Notes: generated from the sequence alone by a model not told the origin. DNA of 64,000 bases from an uncultured Rhodococcus sp. (GCA_963517305.1 CAUQEL010000008.1:36145-100144); one strand, 5' to 3'. Numbered from the stretch's first letter, positions 9,873 through 60,472 are shown. Numbers and translations are program-made.

Positions 9873-11213
9873 TCAGTTCCCTCGGCCGGAATTACCGTTG
9901 CCGTTCCCATTGCCGTTGCCGGAATTGCCGTTCCCGTTGCCGTTGCCGGAGTTGCCGTTTCCGTTCCCCGAATTGCCGTTACCGTTCCCCGGAGGTAGCG
10001 GTGCCGGCGCAGCGGGCTCGATCGGAACCGGATTCGTCGTGGGTACGGGAGCAGGCTCAGGTGGGTTCGAGAAGACCGGAATCGACGTCGCAGGCGCAGG
10101 CGTCGTGGGTGCCACTGTGGTCGACTCCACCAGTGTCGGAGTCGATGTCGACGGCGACGGCGAGAGAGGCTCCGGCTCCTCGCCTGTGCCGACGGCGACC
10201 CAGACGATCGCCGCTCCCAGCGACACGAACAGAGCTGTCGCTGCTGGGATCATCCATCGTCGGCGCGGCGACTCCGCTTCGATCGACGCTGGAACTGAAG
10301 GGGACGCAACCATATTGGTCGGTTCGGCGGGCATTACGGTAGTGCGGGGAAGAGGTGCCGTGCTTCGCGAGAGCTCGCGCAGTCGGTGGGCGACGGCAGC
10401 TGCGGCCGGTCGATCCTCGGGGCGCCTGGATGTCATCTCAGTCAACAGTGCGTGCCAGTCCGATCCGAGCCCCTCGGGTACGGCGGGATCGCGGTGCAGG
10501 CGCGCCACCGCTGCTGCCACCGCGCTTCCCTCGAATACCATTGCGCCGGTAAGGCACTCGATGAGGACGAGCCCCAGGGTATAGATGTCCGTCGGTGGGC
10601 CTGCAGACGTACCCGTCGCCTGCTCCGGGCTGAGGTAGTGCGCAGTACCGACCGTGGTGCCGTGCTCGGTGAGTCGTTCGGCGTCGACGATGCGGGCGAT
10701 ACCGAAATCGGCAAGTTTGGCGCACTGTCCCATGCCGACGTCCGGAGCCTGCGCAACGAGGATGTTGGCCGGTTTGATGTCGCGATGCACCACACCCTGC
10801 TCGTGAATGTAGGCGAGAGCCTCCGCCAGCTCGTATCCGATCCGCGCGACGTGGGCACCGTCCATTGTTCGGCCCTGGCGATACGCACTCAAAGTCGGCC
10901 CGTCGATCAGCTCCATCACCAGGTACGGCACCGGCACCCCGCTTGCATCGACCGCAGTGCCCGCGTCGTACAGCGTCACCAGACCCGGGTGCGACAGCGA
11001 CGCGAGAGTTCGAATTTCTGCATCGATGCGCTGGGCAGTGTCCGGCGGCTCACCGTGGCGGAATATCTTCACCGCAACGGATCGGCCGAGAACGTGGTCA
11101 TCGGCGTGCACGACGTCGGCCATTCCGCCGCGCCCCAACACCGTGCCCAGTCGGTATCGACCCGCGAAGAGGTGGTCGTGAGGGGCACCGGGACGAGAGT
11201 CCGCTTCCACCAT
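9873..11213 (-). CDS. Hanks-type Ser/Thr protein kinase with TM helix and Pro-rich plus Gly-Asn repeat extracellular tail
   Basis: LGRGGMADV, VAVK, HRDIKPANI, LADFGIA, GTAHYLSPEQ; hydrophobic segment WMIPAATALFVSLGAAIVWVAV. Confidence 0.93.
   Translation of the reverse strand: MVEADSRPGAPHDHLFAGRYRLGTVLGRGGMADVVHADDHVLGRSVAVKIFRHGEPPDTAQRIDAEIRTLASLSHPGLVTLYDAGTAVDASGVPVPYLVMELIDGPTLSAYRQGRTMDGAHVARIGYELAEALAYIHEQGVVHRDIKPANILVAQAPDVGMGQCAKLADFGIARIVDAERLTEHGTTVGTAHYLSPEQATGTSAGPPTDIYTLGLVLIECLTGAMVFEGSAVAAAVARLHRDPAVPEGLGSDWHALLTEMTSRRPEDRPAAAAVAHRLRELSRSTAPLPRTTVMPAEPTNMVASPSVPASIEAESPRRRWMIPAATALFVSLGAAIVWVAVGTGEEPEPLSPSPSTSTPTLVESTTVAPTTPAPATSIPVFSNPPEPAPVPTTNPVPIEPAAPAPLPPGNGNGNSGNGNGNSGNGNGNGNSGNGNGNGNGNSGRGN
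9876..9989 (-). repeat. Coding Gly-Asn(-Ser) low-complexity repeat, 38 aa
   Basis: GNGNGNS-GNGNGNS-GNGNGNGNS-GNGNGNGNGNS-GRGN at the kinase C-terminus. Confidence 0.9.
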
Positions 11214-25018: not shown

Positions 25019-28000
25019 CTAGCGCTCGCTCACGAGCTCGAGCGCCACGAGATCGGAAAGATACTTTTCGATCAGTTCGCGTCCGAGGTGCGGAATATCC
25101 CCGACGGCCGAGGCGAACTCGTCGGCAGGCAGTATCGCCCCGGACGACGGGTGCTGCGGTTGTGCGTACGAGTCGATCAAGGGGAGCAACGAGTGCGAAC
25201 GCTGCTTCTCCGGAAGCGCCTCGACTGCAGCGCTGAAACGCTCGAACCACTCGTCGTAGTTCTCGACGATCTCTATGTCGCGACCCGCGTCACGGATCCA
25301 ATCGACGAAAGTGTCCAGCGAGATGTCGTCGTCGTGTGGGTTGAGGATGTCGAAGGTTCGGTAGCCCGAGGTATCCCCACCCGCGATCGACGTTATGGCC
25401 GACGCACTGAAATCGGCCGGCAGTCCGTCGTAGTGGGCCAGCGGTCGCCCCTGCTCGTCGGTCGGTGCCCCGGTGTCGGTGTTGTAGAACGTGTGTGGAG
25501 CCAGACCGGTTGCGACCACCGACAAGAGCAAACGAGTGAACACGTCCGGCACGTTGAGCTGACCCCTCCACGTGCTGTGCGCGAGAATCATGTCTGAGCG
25601 GAAGACCGAGACGGGCAGGCCGAACTCGTCGAAAGCATTGCGCAACAGCACCTCACCGGCCCACTTGGAGTTGCCGTAACCGTTGGCGTACGAATCGTCC
25701 ACGGCCCGCGACGGGCTGTCGACGCGAATGTCGCCGTTCTCCCGGAATTCCTCGACGCCCGCTGCGACCGCCACCGTCGACAGGTAGGTCACCGGCTTGA
25801 CATGGTCGGTCAGCGCCAGTCGGATCACCTCGGCCGTGCCGACGACGTTGGGGCCGAAGAGGTGCTCGTACGGCAGGGCATGGTTGACCAGCGCGGCGGG
25901 ATGGACGATGCGATCGACCCGTTCGGCCAGCGCCTGGAATGCGTCGTGTTCCAAGCCGAAGTGAGGTGCCCCGAGATCACCTGCCACGACCTCGAGAGCG
26001 GCGTCGGCCAAGGTTCGATAACGCTCCGACAGTTCGGCGTCTCCACTGTCGAAGGCTGCATCGAGACGAGCTCGCGCGTCGGAATCGGAGCGTCCGCGCA
26101 CCAGGCACACCACCTTTCCGCCGACCTCGGCCATGCGCCCCAGCCATTCCAGGCAGAGGAAGCGGCCGAGGTACCCGTTGGCACCGGTCAGCAAGACCGT
26201 GCTGGTCTGTTCTCGTGGGCCGGGAACATGGTGTGCGGCGTCCAGGAGCGCGTCGTCGAGAAATGCCGACAGACGCAGGTCGGAGGCGCGTGCAACGGCG
26301 GAGTCGCGACCGTGCACCGAGGCGAATGTCGCTGTGTCGGAGTCGTTGTCGCGAGCCGAGGAAATGTACTCGGCGAGCGCCGCCAGGTCCATGGCGGGCC
26401 CGGTGATCACTCCGACCGGTACGTCCACGTCGTAGATCTCACGCAGGAGCGTCGAGAACGTCAACGCCGACAACGAGTCTCCGCCGAGATCACCGAAGTG
26501 GGCATCGGGTCGGACGTCGGATCCGTCGCATCCCAGCAGTGCCTGCGCGGCATCGCCGACGGTGGTCAGCACTGGTGCGTCGGCACCGCTGCGTCGTAGC
26601 TCGCGGAGACGTTCGTTCTGACCCGACTCGAGTTCTGCGTAGCGACGCTCGAGATCGGCACCGTAGCGCTCGACCAACTTGGGACGCAGTTGCTTGCCTG
26701 CACCGGACAGCAGTCCGTTCTCCTGTGTGAACGGCTGGTGCTCGACGATGACGTCGCGCGGAATCTCGTACGAGTTCAGCGCGTCGGTGCGCGCGATACT
26801 CTGCAACGATTCGATGACCGAACCCGCAGTCGTATCCGGGTGGGCCGGTACGACGATTGCCAGGAGATACGCCCGTTGGCTGTTGCCGTACAGAAATATC
26901 TGGTCGACCAGCTCGCTGGTACCGAACAACGCTTCGAGGCGCGCCAGCGCGACGAACTCGCCCTGCGCCAGCTTCAGCACGTTCTTGCGCCGGTCGACAT
27001 AGGCCAGTCGGTCCGGTTCGAGCTCGGCGACGACGTCACCGGTGCGATAGAAGCCCTCGGAGTCGAAAACATCGGCCGTGACGTCCGGGCGCTTGTAGTA
27101 ACCGGGAATGATGGTCGACGTTCTGAGCAGAAGCTCACCGCGGGGGTACGGCTTGTCCGTGGAGAAGTACCCGAGTTCGGGGACGTCGTCGAGCTTGTAC
27201 TCGATCACCGGTGGGCGCGCGATCACGCCGTCGTGCAACACCATTCCGGCTTCGGTGGAGCCGTAGTTGTCGCGCACCTCGATATCGAGGAGCTCCGTGA
27301 CGAAATCCTTGACCTCCTCGGCGATCGGTGCGGTGCCGACCATGGCTGCAAGGATGCGTCCGCCGAACTGCTCGTTCCTGTTGCGCTCCAACACAGTTTG
27401 CCGAGCGCGGTCGTCGTCTCCCTCAGTGGAGCGTTCGACCTCCCGGTCGATCTCGGCGAGGACGTTGTGTCGGATCATCTCGCAGACCCGCGGGATCAAC
27501 AGTGCCATCGTGGGTCGAGCGAGTGCGAAATCCTCGAACAAGGTGGACAGGTCGCTCGCCCCTGCGAAATGGACGGTGCCGCCGGCCGCCAGCGTCGAGA
27601 AGACGAGGCCACGCCCCGCCAGGTGACTCATCGGAAGGTAGTCGAGCGTGATCACGGGGAAGGCAGGCCGATCCACGGATTCGGAGGAAGCTCCGGTGTG
27701 GTGCCAGGCCCCGGTCCAGGCTCCGCACACGATTCGTTCGGTGTGCATCGCTCCCTTGGGTGTTCCGGTGCTGCCGGACGTGTAGATCAGTGTCGCGAGT
27801 CGATCGGAATCCTCGGCCTCGGGTAGTGGAACCTCCGGTAGTTGCGCGCCGTCGCGAACCAGCTCGGTGAGCGGCCGGACGAAGACGCCCACTTGTTCGG
27901 CATCGTTGCGCGCGGCTCTCATGATCCGGGTGTGCGTGTCGATTGCACCGTCGTAGTCGAGGACGACGATTCGCCGAATGGACCGACAATGCGTGGCAAC

Positions 28001-28546
28001 CTGGACCGCAACGGACAGGTTGTCGACATCGGCTGCCAGAACGGCGGGTTCGACCTCGTCGGCGATGGCGGAGAGCTGGCCCGCGGTGGCACCGGCCTGC
28101 AAGGGAACGGCAATTGCGCCGAGTCGGATCGTGGCCAATTCCGCGATGACATAGTCGGCACTCGCGAATCCCAGAGTTGCGAAGAAGTCTCCTGGACCGA
28201 TACCGAATGCGTCGTGCGTCAGCGCCGACGCCAGTGCACCGGCGTCGTTCCAGGCTCGGCCGTAGGTGACGGTGTCGAAGCGCGGGAGCAGGCGAAGGGT
28301 GTTCGCGTCGTCGATTCGGGCGATCTCTCGAGCTCGGCGGCCGAGCGCCGGCCGATCCGAGTAGCGCGTCATGACCTCGGCAACCACGCGGGCCAGGTTG
28401 GGCGACAACTCCTGGGCGGCGTCGGCCACTGCGCTGTCCGGTTCGGCGGCTCGAAACTCCTGGTCGGACTCGTGCAGTTCCTGAAATCGACTGCGTTGCC
28501 TGCTCTGACGATCCTGTCGGCTGTCGACGGCCAGTGTGTGGGTCAT
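25019..28546 (-). CDS. car: Carboxylic acid reductase (A-T-R architecture)
   Basis: A domain YTSGSTGTPKG, YGSTEAG, YRTGD; carrier DLGGDSLSA; reductase LTGANGYLGRF, YGNSKWAGE; ATG 28546 after GGAGGGAG. Confidence 0.93.
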   Translation of the reverse strand: MTHTLAVDSRQDRQSRQRSRFQELHESDQEFRAAEPDSAVADAAQELSPNLARVVAEVMTRYSDRPALGRRAREIARIDDANTLRLLPRFDTVTYGRAWNDAGALASALTHDAFGIGPGDFFATLGFASADYVIAELATIRLGAIAVPLQAGATAGQLSAIADEVEPAVLAADVDNLSVAVQVATHCRSIRRIVVLDYDGAIDTHTRIMRAARNDAEQVGVFVRPLTELVRDGAQLPEVPLPEAEDSDRLATLIYTSGSTGTPKGAMHTERIVCGAWTGAWHHTGASSESVDRPAFPVITLDYLPMSHLAGRGLVFSTLAAGGTVHFAGASDLSTLFEDFALARPTMALLIPRVCEMIRHNVLAEIDREVERSTEGDDDRARQTVLERNRNEQFGGRILAAMVGTAPIAEEVKDFVTELLDIEVRDNYGSTEAGMVLHDGVIARPPVIEYKLDDVPELGYFSTDKPYPRGELLLRTSTIIPGYYKRPDVTADVFDSEGFYRTGDVVAELEPDRLAYVDRRKNVLKLAQGEFVALARLEALFGTSELVDQIFLYGNSQRAYLLAIVVPAHPDTTAGSVIESLQSIARTDALNSYEIPRDVIVEHQPFTQENGLLSGAGKQLRPKLVERYGADLERRYAELESGQNERLRELRRSGADAPVLTTVGDAAQALLGCDGSDVRPDAHFGDLGGDSLSALTFSTLLREIYDVDVPVGVITGPAMDLAALAEYISSARDNDSDTATFASVHGRDSAVARASDLRLSAFLDDALLDAAHHVPGPREQTSTVLLTGANGYLGRFLCLEWLGRMAEVGGKVVCLVRGRSDSDARARLDAAFDSGDAELSERYRTLADAALEVVAGDLGAPHFGLEHDAFQALAERVDRIVHPAALVNHALPYEHLFGPNVVGTAEVIRLALTDHVKPVTYLSTVAVAAGVEEFRENGDIRVDSPSRAVDDSYANGYGNSKWAGEVLLRNAFDEFGLPVSVFRSDMILAHSTWRGQLNVPDVFTRLLLSVVATGLAPHTFYNTDTGAPTDEQGRPLAHYDGLPADFSASAITSIAGGDTSGYRTFDILNPHDDDISLDTFVDWIRDAGRDIEIVENYDEWFERFSAAVEALPEKQRSHSLLPLIDSYAQPQHPSSGAILPADEFASAVGDIPHLGRELIEKYLSDLVALELVSER

Positions 28547-28863
28547 GCTCGACTCCCTCCGACGAAGTGCACCGATCGTTCGGGGCACCTCGCGATTGTC
28601 CGCTCAATATCGTTATCAAAGGTAAGTATATGCCGTCGAGTGCCGCGCCAATCGTGACGCTGCTCATAGTCCGATAAGTCGTAAATATCTGCCTGACTGC
28701 ACTTTTGGAGCGCGGATCGCGGACGCGAAGCTGCGGTGTCAGGTCACGTGGGTACTCGGTGAAAGCGAGAGATCGCGACTTGTATGGTGAATCCACAGTC
28801 ATGTGCGTCACAGTGCTCGTCATCATCGTGCGCACGTGTCACCCCTCGCGATCGGAGAAGTGA

Positions 28864-31453: not shown

Positions 31454-32716
31454 CTAAGACGCTGCCGTCACCGCAATCCCCTCGCGGATCAGTCTGCGCG
31501 CAACCACCAGCGCATCGTCGGTGTCGAGGCCCGGCATCGAGTCGAGGCGGCACGAAGCGCCCTTCGTCAAGCTCTCGATCGCGTCGGCGCACTGAGACGG
31601 CAACGTGACCGTTTTGTTCCGAAGCACCATCGAGACGCCGTCCTTCGTGTGCGTGATCCGCGCGAAGATGCCGGGCCGCAACCGAATCGAATTCTCGCCC
31701 CGAAGCGCACCCATCGTGGCGACGCTCGCCAGCGGGCGCACCGGTTCCGGTCGGACGAGGTCGTGGTGACGATCTGCGACGCGTTCGGCGAGTCGACGTA
31801 CTGCGTCGGGGTCTCGGTCGATGTCGTCGAGCGCGGCGCGCATGACGTCCACAACTCGGTGTACATGCGCAACGATGGACTCCGGGTCCGAGTGGTCGAG
31901 GCCGGCGGGGAGGGGAGCACGCAGACTCTCGACGTCGCCGAGCGACTTCAGCACATGGTGCGCGAGGTCGTAGTCGTTGTACGACGCGACGCCGATGGTC
32001 AAGTGCACGGTGGTGTCGCCGAGCGCTTGCGCCGAATGGATCCACCCACGCGGCAGGTAAAGCACATCGCCGGGCTCGAGGACGATGTCCAGTTCGGGAG
32101 TGTCCGATGCGTGATCCTCGACGGCCGACCGTCGATCCGACCACGGTTGATTGTTGAGCGGATGCACGTGCACCGGCGAGTGAATGCTCCACCGCTTGGT
32201 ACCCGCGATCTGCACGACGAACACATCGTGCACATCGTAGTGCGGTGAAAAGCCTTGGGACGCAGCTGGTGTGACGTAGGAATTCACCTGCACTGGATGG
32301 CCCAGCTCACGAACGAGATCGCCGACGAAGTGAATGAGCGGTGGCCAGAGTCGATGCAGGCCTTGCAGTACCAGCGTATTTCCGGCCGCGAAGGCTGCCA
32401 GCACCGCTGCGGAGTCGACCTGGTCCGTCACCTCGGCACCGAATCCGCCGGACGCCGTGAACTGCGACTTGTCCAGCAATCGACCGTCTTTGGCCATCCG
32501 CACGAACGGAGTGCGGACTCCGCGTTCGGATATCAGCTCGTCGACCGCATCGAGCGTCATCAGATCGTCGAACGAGTCCGACAGATCGGCTGATCTGGTC
32601 ACCTTGGGAGCAACGCCCCAGAACCGATCTGCGAAGGTCCCGAGGTCGATACCGGTCAGACGACGGAGCGCGGACCGGTTTCCCGGTCCGCGCTCGCCGC
32701 TCGGCTCAGTGCTCAA
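31454..32716 (-). CDS. JmjC/cupin 2-oxoglutarate Fe(II) oxygenase, NO66/MINA/YcfD (ROX)-like
   Basis: NSYVTP...GFSPHYDVHDVFVVQIAGTKRW and LEPGDVLYLPRGWIHSA give the HxD...H triad; C-terminal winged-helix-like region; TTG start overlaps the upstream stop (TTGA). Confidence 0.88.
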   Translation of the reverse strand: MSTEPSGERGPGNRSALRRLTGIDLGTFADRFWGVAPKVTRSADLSDSFDDLMTLDAVDELISERGVRTPFVRMAKDGRLLDKSQFTASGGFGAEVTDQVDSAAVLAAFAAGNTLVLQGLHRLWPPLIHFVGDLVRELGHPVQVNSYVTPAASQGFSPHYDVHDVFVVQIAGTKRWSIHSPVHVHPLNNQPWSDRRSAVEDHASDTPELDIVLEPGDVLYLPRGWIHSAQALGDTTVHLTIGVASYNDYDLAHHVLKSLGDVESLRAPLPAGLDHSDPESIVAHVHRVVDVMRAALDDIDRDPDAVRRLAERVADRHHDLVRPEPVRPLASVATMGALRGENSIRLRPGIFARITHTKDGVSMVLRNKTVTLPSQCADAIESLTKGASCRLDSMPGLDTDDALVVARRLIREGIAVTAAS

Positions 32717-32970
32717 GCGGTACCGTCCGCACCGCCGTCGTGTCCGTTGGGGTTGGATCCGCCATCGGCCGGGCCCTCGCCCGCTCCGGCGGGGCCGTCT
32801 GCTCCGCCGTCGTGACCGTCGGGGTTGGATCCGCCGTCGGCAGGCCCTTCACCGGCTCCGGCGGGGCCGTCTGCTCCGCCGTCATGACCACCGGGGTTCG
32901 ATCCGCCGTCAGCGGGTCCTTCACCTGCGGCTCCGCCCGTGGTGGTGATGTCGTCGTCGTTGATGCTCAT
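32713..32970 (-). CDS. 85-aa Gly/Asp-rich tandem-repeat peptide (putative precursor or substrate of the JmjC enzyme)
   Basis: ATG 32970 after GGAAGGA; MSINDDDITTTGGA followed by 3x AGEGPADGGSNPxGHDGGADG(PAG/TA); synonymous differences between repeats preserve this frame. Confidence 0.8.
   Translation of the reverse strand: MSINDDDITTTGGAAGEGPADGGSNPGGHDGGADGPAGAGEGPADGGSNPDGHDGGADGPAGAGEGPADGGSNPNGHDGGADGTA
32716..32928 (-). repeat. 72-bp coding tandem repeat, 3 copies
   Basis: Units 32928-32857, 32856-32785 and 32784-32716 (last one codon shorter). Confidence 0.9.
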
Positions 32971-33073
32971 CGAAGTCCTTCCGGTCGTGGAGGTTCGTGT
33001 GCCCGCGCAGCGCGAGAACATCGGAGGTATTGACGCAAACTCTGTTTCTCAAACAGCGATGGTGCCGTGAATC

Positions 33074-33232
33074 TCAGGCAGAGTCGTCGGCGATCTCGGG
33101 CGCGTTCTCCCGCGTCGCCATCCCGCCTGCGCCGCCGCCGTCCACTGGGCCTGGTCGGCCGCCCTTCGGCGTGTCCGATGCCTTCTCGGACTCTGTCGGG
33201 TTCTCGTTGTCGGTGTTCTTCTCACGTCCCAT
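33074..33232 (-). CDS. Small hydrophilic hypothetical peptide (52 aa)
   Basis: MGREKNTDNENPTESEKASDTPKGGRPGPVDGGGAGGMATRENAPEIADDSA fills the gap between the repeat gene and idi; no clear RBS, possibly leaderless. Confidence 0.5.
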   Translation of the reverse strand: MGREKNTDNENPTESEKASDTPKGGRPGPVDGGGAGGMATRENAPEIADDSA

Positions 33233-58723: not shown

Positions 58724-60472
58724 TCAGTGGCTGCGAGCCGGACCGTCGAAACCGTCGTACGAGCGGCGTTCCGTGCGGCTGCGGAAGCCACCGGAGCGGT
58801 GCTCGTCCTGGCGGGGGCCGGACGCGGGACGACGGTTGTCGGAGCCACGGTTGTCGGAGCCACGGTTGTCGGAGCCGCGACCTTCGTAGCCACGACCCTC
58901 GGAGCCGCGGTACGAGCTCGAGTCGGAGCGACGCGGGCGGTCACCCTGGTAGCCCTCGCTGCGTGGGTTGGAGCCCTGGTATCCGCCGCCGCTGCGGGGA
59001 TTGGAGCCCTGGTAGCCGGTGCGGGGACGGTCTCCCTGGTAGCCCTCGCTGCTGCGCGGGTTGGAGCCCTGGTATCCGCCGGTGCTGCGCGGGTTGGAGC
59101 CCTGGTATCCGCCGGTGCTGCGCGGGTTGGAGCCCTGGTATCCGCCGGTGCTGCGCGGGTTCGATCCCTGGTAGCCGGGACGGCTGTTCCGGTCGCGGGG
59201 AGCGGACTCGGCGCGCAAGGGCTCACCGGTCGGCTTCTTCGCTCCGGTGATGCTGTTCAGCTCGGCCGAACCGGGCGAGACGTTGACGGCGGTGGCCTTG
59301 ACGCCGGCCATACCGGTCAGCCGCAGAACCTGACGACGCTGGTTGGGGAGCACGATCGCGACGACGGTGCCCTTCTCTCCGGCGCGTGCCGTGCGTCCTG
59401 CGCGGTGCAGGTAGTCCTTGTGGTCTGCGGGCGGATCGACGTGGACGACCAGGTCGATACCGTCGACGTGGATTCCGCGAGCGGCGACGTCGGTAGCGAC
59501 GAGGACAGGGGTGCGGCCGTTCTTGAAGCGCTCGAGAACGCGGGTGCGCTGATTCTGAGCCTTGCCACCGTGCAGGGACTCCGCGGCGATACCGAGCGCA
59601 CGCAGGCGATCGGTGATTCCGTCGCAGCCCAGCTTGGTACGCGCGAACATGATGGTGCGACCGCCTTCGCGGGCGCCGATCTCGGAGAGAACGAGATCCT
59701 TCTGACCCCGGTCGACCATGAGGACGTAGTGATCCATGGTCCGGACGCTGGCTTTGCCGTCCTGGGTGGAGTGCTCGACGTGATCGGGCAGGAACTGGCG
59801 AACCAGCGACTGAACCTCACGGTCGAGGGTGGCCGAGAACAGCATGCGCTGTCCGTCTGCCGGAGTGTCGGCGAGGACTGCACGTACCTCGGGCAGGAAG
59901 CCCATGTCGGCCATCTGATCGGCCTCGTCGAGGGCGGTGATCTCGATGGAGTCCAGGATGCAGGTGCCCTGGCGGAGGTGATCGGCGAGGCGGCCGGGGG
60001 TGGCGACGAGGACGTCGACTCCGCGTCGGAGCTGCTCGACCTGCTTGTTGAACGGGGTACCGCCGACGGCGGGCATGACTCGCAGGCCCTGCGCGTTGGC
60101 GTAGGGAGCGAGGGATTCGACGACCTGGAAAGCGAGTTCGCGGGTGGGGACCAGCACGAGCGAACGCGGACGCTTGGCGGCAGGACGGTCGGTGTGCAGC
60201 GACAGGCGCTGCAGGATCGGCAAGCCGAAAGCAAGGGTCTTGCCCGAGCCGGTCTGCGCGCGGCCGAGAACGTTCTTACCGGCGATCGCGTCGGGAAGTG
60301 CCTTCTCCTGAATAGGGGAGGGCACGGTGATCGAGTTGCGCGCCAATGCGGCGACGACTGCCTCGGGCAGACCGAGATCGGCGAAGGTGAAGGCCGGTGC
60401 CGCTACGGGCGTCGGGACTGCCGTGGTGTCGGAAGCGGTGGAAACGGGTGTGTTGGAAACAGCGTGGGTCAC
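58724..60472 (-). CDS. DEAD-box RNA helicase with repetitive low-complexity C-terminal tail
   Basis: TFADLGL, AQTGSGKT, PTREL, DEAD, SAT, HRAGRTAR; tail of GYQGSNPR repeats. Confidence 0.94.
   Translation of the reverse strand: MTHAVSNTPVSTASDTTAVPTPVAAPAFTFADLGLPEAVVAALARNSITVPSPIQEKALPDAIAGKNVLGRAQTGSGKTLAFGLPILQRLSLHTDRPAAKRPRSLVLVPTRELAFQVVESLAPYANAQGLRVMPAVGGTPFNKQVEQLRRGVDVLVATPGRLADHLRQGTCILDSIEITALDEADQMADMGFLPEVRAVLADTPADGQRMLFSATLDREVQSLVRQFLPDHVEHSTQDGKASVRTMDHYVLMVDRGQKDLVLSEIGAREGGRTIMFARTKLGCDGITDRLRALGIAAESLHGGKAQNQRTRVLERFKNGRTPVLVATDVAARGIHVDGIDLVVHVDPPADHKDYLHRAGRTARAGEKGTVVAIVLPNQRRQVLRLTGMAGVKATAVNVSPGSAELNSITGAKKPTGEPLRAESAPRDRNSRPGYQGSNPRSTGGYQGSNPRSTGGYQGSNPRSTGGYQGSNPRSSEGYQGDRPRTGYQGSNPRSGGGYQGSNPRSEGYQGDRPRRSDSSSYRGSEGRGYEGRGSDNRGSDNRGSDNRRPASGPRQDEHRSGGFRSRTERRSYDGFDGPARSH
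58832..59175 (-). repeat. Coding tandem repeats: 33-bp unit (GYQGSNPRSTG) and 15-bp unit (GSDNR x3)
   Basis: Identical 33-mers at 59051, 59084 and 59117 plus degenerate copies; acggttgtcggagcc at 58832, 58847 and 58862. Confidence 0.92.

Follow-up and report, generated by a model that had tools for sequence, protein, structure and literature searches.

A short acidic repeat peptide and a ROX-type JmjC oxygenase are encoded by adjacent genes in an uncultured Rhodococcus sp., and both genes are real, coupled and co-occurring across the phylum Actinomycetota. The peptide is quite probably the dedicated substrate of the oxygenase. If it is, beta-hydroxylation of its Asp residues is the likely chemistry, and the two claims taken together, that of a dedicated substrate hydroxylated on Asp, are modestly favoured. 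The pair lies in a stretch of 64,000 nucleotides (GCA_963517305.1 CAUQEL010000008.1:36145-100144), referred to here as the window, and was first singled out by a model's sequence-only reading as a candidate undescribed RiPP or peptide-hydroxylation system.

The peptide gene and its surroundings

The precursor-like peptide is encoded at positions 32713..32970 on the minus strand and consists of 85 aa (7.35 kDa, pI 4.05), including 29 Gly and 13 Asp, without Cys, Lys, Arg or any aromatic residue. The sequence-only reading had described an 85-aa ORF with its own ribosome binding site, and the translation agrees with that description; the Shine-Dalgarno sequence GGAAGGA (32976..32982, minus strand) stands 5 bases 5' of the ATG. 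An alternative ATG at 33021, which would give 102 aa, is missing from most orthologues. Residues 1-11 (32938..32970, minus strand) form a conserved leader with the motif [IL]-x-D-[DE]-D-[IM]-T-T, and three Asp-rich core repeats follow at 32928-32857, 32856-32785 and 32784-32716 (all within 32716..32928, minus strand), delimited by TRF and conservation, so that the proposed layout of a leader plus repeats is borne out. Each core repeat contains three Asp-Gly pairs (ADGG, HDGG and ADG), and the peptide has ten Asp-Gly in total. Three units of 24 aa had been claimed; TRF confirmed the tandem (period 72, 2.8 copies, 87% matches), and the third unit proved to be 23 aa long. The earlier remark that the DNA copies differ mostly at synonymous sites also holds, since over 20 codons the copies differ by 6, 12 and 9 synonymous codons with 1 non-synonymous difference each. 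Among 17 equal-length orthologues, 348 codon differences are synonymous vs 99 non-synonymous. The peptide is a real gene, and its repeat is under purifying selection as protein. It matches no family in Pfam or NCBIfam. Its relatives at E <=0.01 number 169, one of which is named 'BatC protein', and the matching Atlas clusters carry the name 'BatC protein family protein', an uninformative automated label of the kind the earlier reading had mentioned.

The stop codon of the peptide overlaps the TTG start of the 420-aa oxygenase in the TTGA at 32716-32713, as had been observed, and NTGA-type stop/start overlaps are common at this junction across the loci. The flanking genes in the window are SDR, idi and a Nudix gene, and the enzyme gene ends 6 bases from the convergent SDR gene, with no ferredoxin remnant between them. 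The earlier caveat that no protease, exporter or signal peptide is visible near the locus stands for the window. No gene for a leader protease or exporter recurs nearby in 80 loci with flanks up to 8 kb. A double-glycine leader was ruled out, as no double-Gly site is conserved in the peptides. A 52-aa acidic Gly-rich ORF, unnamed in databases, lies 5' of the peptide (33074-33232, minus strand) with TACTGT 6 bases 5' of its ATG and is possibly leaderless; it is present in 14 loci only, all from close relatives, and was rejected as a part of the system. Elsewhere in the window, GYQGSNPRST tandem repeats (58832-59177, minus strand) form the C-terminal tail of what is by its motifs an apparent DEAD-box RNA helicase, a short GN-type tandem repeat is found at 9885-9994, and a 1189-aa ORF (25019-28588, minus strand) presumably resembles carboxylic acid reductase, with adenylation, carrier and reductase motifs.

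A SigF-like promoter candidate, GTTT-N16-GTCAA (33030..33054, minus strand), is conserved 5' of the peptide gene in the genus and departs from the strict GGGTA -10 element. The patterns were picked after looking at the data. Of the 11 genus loci left after de-duplication, 10 have a GTTT-N15-17-GTCAA variant, against a mean of 0.01 on shuffling; a relaxed SigF-like form is present in 17 of 27 loci from other Mycobacteriales, where shuffling gives a mean of 0.42, and in none of 24 loci of the Microbacteriaceae group or of 31 distant loci. The strict GTTT-N15-17-GGGTA is absent at the window locus and present in 1 of the 27 other Mycobacteriales loci. GGGTA is the most enriched GTTT partner at N15-17 in this genome (39 vs 18.7 expected), and the ORFs behind related GTTT motifs are what we take to be Dps and a manganese catalase. 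Because GTCAA is not enriched as a GTTT partner genome-wide, control of the peptide gene by SigF, the consensus forms of which are given in a passage of PMC4694148, is no more than plausible. A sigma-70 promoter scan upstream of the peptide found none, and an IdeR-like box, with the pattern used, was found in 0 of 94 upstream regions. One raw-read run (X24) placed 0 reads. In related strains, three runs labelled as RNA gave contigs that cover 24-29 of 30 bins and so may be DNA; the higher depth over the peptide (506 vs 16.6 for X9, 37.8 vs 3-11 for X10) may come from collapsed repeats.

Architecture and pocket of the oxygenase

The oxygenase gene (31454..32716, minus strand) encodes a ROX-type JmjC Fe(II)/2-oxoglutarate oxygenase that matches JmjC_2 at E 8e-30 and was modelled with a pLDDT of 95. 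The predicted structure has a JmjC domain, a helical dimerisation region and a C-terminal winged helix, in that order. The metal ligands H159-x-D161...H227, which the earlier reading had recognised as an intact HxD...H triad, are accompanied by the 2OG lysine K174; H159, K174 and H227 are invariant among 137 sequences and D161 is nearly so, with 11 short or broken enzyme extracts left out. The proposed likeness to NO66 was recovered by Foldseek (TM 0.66-0.68), by VIA-align (Z 27.9 with rmsd 4.8 over 384 aligned residues, followed by 24.5 for a MINA53-type structure and 19.0 for YcfD) and by profile search (E 2e-49, with 5e-23 for Rhodothermus YcfD and 2e-16 for E. coli YcfD). Alignment and model thus show a complete predicted Fe/2-oxoglutarate site and a NO66 fold. 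The members of the enzyme's cluster are named cupins and come from Rhodococcus and Rhodococcoides fascians-group strains, and a plasmid search with the enzyme gave, among the best 25 matches, only distant cupins at ~30% identity.

Passages in PMC6006756 and PMC4556315 give the His pocket of NO66 as R297, Y328 and S421. By sequence alignment, the register of which may be off by one, these residues correspond to V116, Y147 and G242; V116 and G242 are invariant in the clade and the Tyr is kept. The Arg pocket of YcfD, given in a passage of PMC5862942 as D118, M120, Y137 and S208, aligns under the same caution about register to Q143, N145, H163 and T240, and K174 stands where YcfD has its 2OG-binding Arg. 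On alignment and model, therefore, the enzyme has the triad, the 2OG basic residue and the domain order of the ROX structural family, and lacks the functional marks both of NO66/MINA53 (R297 and S421 are replaced, and this genome's uL2 is without the NHxH motif) and of YcfD/RoxA (the Arg pocket is replaced). Residues R73, Q143, N145, Y147 and H163 are invariant in 54 near and 32 distant enzymes, and R68, Q118 and R122 are nearly invariant in the same set; R73, R68, R122, Q118 and H163 form a basic and polar group to which an acidic substrate would be suited. Actinomycetes-type enzymes are almost alone in having a P191-W192 loop. In a FastTree enzyme tree, which contains no NO66 sequence, the peptide-linked enzymes are not cleanly monophyletic, as the peptide-less long branches L157 and L159 nest among them.

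The winged helix covers about residues 340-420 (31457..31699, minus strand), with three strands followed by helices according to DSSP on the model, and carries the conserved residues R347, R407, R408 and R411. Its nearest Atlas family is a ROXA-like winged helix (score 0.94). Profile and Pfam sequence searches found no PqqD/RRE family in the C-terminal domain, and the strand-then-helix order of the model would fit a PqqD-like RRE layout. According to parts of PMC12710340, an RRE-like fold can occur in domains fused to JmjC, and the closest bacterial homologues of these are found in RiPP-like contexts. On the peptide side, successive positions of the leader motif are occupied, among 121 unique peptides, by D (115), D/E (111), D (114) and I/M (121), and the I3-x4-I8 spacing of the motif resembles the L(X)4L motif, which is described in part of bioRxiv 10.64898/2026.10.04.756588 as binding RiPP recognition elements. 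The modelled winged helix is a candidate leader-binding element; a winged helix is common to NO66 and YcfD, neither of which needs a leader. In Mycolicibacterium pyrenivorans (L096:5366-6814) a frameshift inside the repeats joins the leader and first repeat to the reading frame of the JmjC protein, a fusion that is probably an assembly error. When this fused ORF of leader, one repeat and enzyme was folded from an alignment whose rows did not cover the leader, the latter had a pLDDT of ~35 and no strand; the single-chain model gives no support to leader docking, yet is not counted against binding.

Linkage across Actinomycetota and the third gene

The peptide is encoded directly upstream of the enzyme, ending at the enzyme start, in 108 of 110 loci, a set made up of 30 from relatives and the best 80 of 559 GTDB matches, some from the same genome; the two loci without it are cut off by a contig edge at most 14 bases away. 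Among 48 further loci (28 returned automatically and 20 chosen across the score range), an acidic peptide is directly upstream in 43, one being divergent (L119) and one truncated (L140), and the 5 without it are among the weakest enzyme matches. An enzyme match was found in 73 of the 401 Actinomycetota genomes drawn. The reverse search with a peptide profile detected 37 of the 401 genomes, all within the 73 enzyme-positive ones, and this 37 is a floor because the profile misses many divergent peptides. Of 39 profile matches, 37 adjoin the enzyme; the other two are in a genome split over contigs (G357) and in one with a second, free-standing copy (G162). Co-occurrence of peptide and enzyme, which had been set as a check on the original idea, is thus observed in both directions, in loci that are related and partly duplicated, with counts that are not independent. 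The enzyme is present in 46 of 47 genus genomes. Unpublished genomes contributed single loci (G031, G292 and G088) or tallies only (G128, G355, G362 and G431), and no conclusion rests on these.

Two loci with basal enzymes (L150 and L154) have a precursor made of two copies of an acidic 20-residue His-containing unit and no adjacent ferredoxin. The free-standing copy in G162 (L254:1914-2201, contig C814) encodes an Asp/Ser-rich peptide that has the leader motif; it lies behind a CBS-like ORF, and no JmjC gene was found in the 5 kb covered. Overall, a short precursor with a conserved leader and cores stands beside a gene of modifying-enzyme type; the unit would resemble a minimal RiPP system in its working, with the modification itself predicted.

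No neighbour except the ferredoxin recurs widely. A PF06999 sucrase/ferredoxin-like gene, whose product has an invariant C132-x8-C141 and H165-x-G-G, follows the enzyme in 118 of 153 loci and is absent from the window; 25 of the 35 loci without it belong to this genus, and enzyme-ferredoxin read-through products exist (P0193). PF06999 genes are missing altogether from 17 of the 46 genus genomes that have the enzyme, so the ferredoxin is dispensable and was rejected as an essential part. Gene content indicates that the window lineage has lost it, which leaves peptide and oxygenase as the minimal unit. The window holds a natural minimal version without the ferredoxin and so offers the cleanest peptide-enzyme pair to test.

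The only PF06999 copy in this genome is a 33% paralogue directly behind a Peripla_BP_2 gene. Among genus PF06999 loci, 13 of 30 follow a Peripla_BP_2 binding-protein gene and 16 of 30 follow the JmjC gene. Stand-alone PF06999 loci from other parts of the phylum, some with neighbours not identified, are beside FecCD, IucA/IucC, Peripla_BP_2 or ferritin genes in 4 of 20 cases and beside citrate-synthase or Cache-sensor genes in 6 of 20, and Streptomyces-type copies adjoin citrate genes. In one family of large genomes (L206, L208, L215, L217 and L218), PF06999 is located beside a helix-turn-helix citrate-synthase and/or a Cache/PAS sensor gene. Part of bioRxiv 10.64898/2026.07.30.741596 places the PF06999 family in cyanobacterial siderophore uptake cassettes, role unknown. 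The PF06999 context is a real but indirect pointer to iron. The Peripla_BP_2-linked gene is, by its neighbourhood, a candidate ferric-chelate reductase. One such stand-alone ferredoxin-like gene behind Peripla_BP_2 (L111:5689-7623, G000:C1) is next to a convergent Fe/Mn superoxide dismutase. A further neighbour that encodes an iron protein, a hemerythrin-domain gene, comes after the ferredoxin at 7 of the 80 loci, namely L102:10236-10766 and six related ones in Mycolicibacterium.

Predicted chemistry, alternatives and known systems

Two sets of Actinomycetes-type repeats, with 267 and 251 units, keep the three Asp of the unit in 98-100%, the Asn in 94-96%, and the His in 95% (first set) and 84% (second set); some other unit positions were fixed by the search pattern itself. 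Precursors have 1 to 8 repeats, and in 3 of 97 and 12 of 119 of them no unit has a His. Two such His-free precursors, L098 (Q,Q,Q in place of His) and L102 (Q,N), are paired with enzymes 77-81% identical to those of their His-type nearest neighbours. Distant cores are of a DADGTD type with about 30% Asp; 27 of 30 are without His, in a count for which the automatic peptide pick skipped 22 loci and the mis-picks L081 and L083 were excluded, and Asn is present in 9 of 32 distant picks. The only residues present in all 121 cores picked are D, G and A. The His is probably not the target, because it is replaced in whole precursors and missing from 27 of 30 distant ones with the pocket unchanged. Because D is kept in all cores and the same pocket residues serve the near and distant groups, the simplest single chemistry would be on Asp. 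The sequence-only reading had left the choice between His and Asp/Asn; its His option has been weakened by the His-free precursors, and its Asp option strengthened, Asp being the sole reactive residue in every core.

In the proposed mechanism, the acidic I-x4-I leader would dock on the Arg-rich winged helix at the C-terminus, in the way that RiPP recognition elements receive their leaders, and the enzyme would move along the repeats, beta-hydroxylating the Asp of Asp-Gly pairs (+16 Da each, with a maximum of ~9-10 sites here). The product may remain full length in the cytoplasm, because no protease or transporter recurs nearby, and might be made under general stress from the SigF-like promoter. 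Its hydroxy-carboxylate groups might then bind Fe(III) or another hard cation, with the thioredoxin-like ferredoxin as an optional redox helper lost in this lineage. An iron-binding role for the product is suggested tentatively and is rather unlikely. A broader proposal is still more doubtful: a phylum-wide, non-exported RiPP in the form of a poly-beta-hydroxyaspartate iron buffer for stress, a hydroxy-carboxylate counterpart of metallothionein, would be built by one processive NO66-like enzyme and release its metal on reduction by the optional ferredoxin.

Other explanations have to be weighed against Asp hydroxylation. The peptide may be the substrate of an enzyme that in this subclade hydroxylates His, as NO66 does, or the Asn of NPxGH, or that performs another oxidation (desaturation, cleavage or backbone hydroxylation); jointly these options are improbable. 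NO66, a His hydroxylase, is the best match by profile and structure and the closest solved relative, its Y328 is kept as Y147, and the high retention of His and Asn in subclade units and the near confinement of the P191-W192 loop to Actinomycetes-type enzymes would also suit such a reading. Against it stand the loss of NO66 R297 and S421, the His-free precursors beside closely similar enzymes, and the distant cores, which mostly have neither His (3 of 30 have it) nor Asn and are served by the same pocket residues.

A slightly poorer prospect is that the peptide goes unmodified and serves as a disordered, acidic protein for stress or cation binding, or may be a regulator or decoy, and that the enzyme targets another protein such as uL16 or uL2. 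The full ROX architecture, the enzyme's being the only strong JmjC_2 match in this genome, a uL16 that keeps RMGSGKG, and a composition and SigF-like promoter suited to a stress hydrophilin are in keeping with this, as is a loose likeness of the unit NPxGHDGGADG to the segment NPVDHPHGGGEG of this genome's uL2. However, that likeness is missing from distant peptides, the uL2 has no NHxH, the Arg pocket of YcfD is not retained, ribosomal targets are universal and the enzyme is patchy (73 of 401 genomes), and a phylum-conserved leader before freely varying repeats has the look of a recognition sequence. That the peptide ORF serves chiefly as a translational leader controlling the oxygenase in cis is very improbable, for although the overlapping stop and start at the junction would allow it, the strong selection at the amino-acid level, the conserved leader motif, the range of 1 to 8 repeats and the second peptide-like gene apart from any JmjC gene in G162 all speak against it.

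With the peptide as substrate, a testable substrate would be available for an uncharacterised bacterial clade as large as 839 clusters (50% identity, E up to 1e-30), to which human NO66 and MINA53 are the closest solved relatives, and many 'BatC' microproteins would have a candidate function. If leader-guided Asp hydroxylation holds, the bacterial relatives closest to eukaryotic NO66/MINA53 would be suggested to be leader-guided peptide hydroxylases, and a two-gene system that hydroxylates Asp at multiple sites would offer a simple means of placing siderophore-type ligands in peptides.

The peptide-oxygenase system is real and widespread, and apparently uncharacterised. In openly licensed literature and preprints no description of the peptide-JmjC-ferredoxin unit was found; section 11 of PMC2938197 gives other neighbourhoods for bacterial MINA/NO66 proteins, and the supplements of PMC2938197 and PMC12710340 may list this one. 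JmjC or Fe/2OG hydroxylases of precursor peptides are already known. BipG of biphenomycin biosynthesis is described in part of PMC12707348 as a JmjC protein that hydroxylates a RiPP precursor; it differs in that it is a tailoring enzyme, a gamma-ornithine hydroxylase, and in that its antibiotic cluster of nine genes includes a protease and a transporter. MppG of the Moorena producens mpp cluster, as described in part of bioRxiv 10.64898/2026.10.04.756588, is an Fe/2OG hydroxylase that depends on the leader, acts processively, has a C-terminal RRE and reads an L(X)4L leader motif, and is by that description likened to the present system, with its I-x4-I leader; in contrast, MppG beta-hydroxylates Trp of a lanthipeptide with a long Nif11 leader in a multi-enzyme cluster. 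SmaO of a group 18 graspetide cluster beta-hydroxylates both Asp of DGDG in a RiPP precursor, according to part of PMC12186529, and is by description similar to the Asp-Gly chemistry predicted here, whereas its system is limited to two sites and comprises a double-glycine leader together with an ATP-grasp ligase and SmaX, an HD-domain enzyme. Apd1/Aim32-type thioredoxin-like ferredoxins, such as CctD of the cyanochelin uptake cassette, belong to PF06999, as does the usual third gene, the fourth ligand position of which is Asp (HxGGD) vs HxGGH in the Apd1/Aim32 type (PMC11138216). The ROX enzymes (human NO66/RIOX1 and MINA53, E. coli YcfD/RoxA and Rhodothermus YcfD) have the same JmjC, dimerisation and winged-helix domains and HxD...H triad, and NO66 and MINA53 also have the same 2OG lysine. 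Unlike them, the enzyme described here has the His- and Arg-pocket residues replaced; its gene is coupled to that of a small repeat peptide, and its distribution is patchy.
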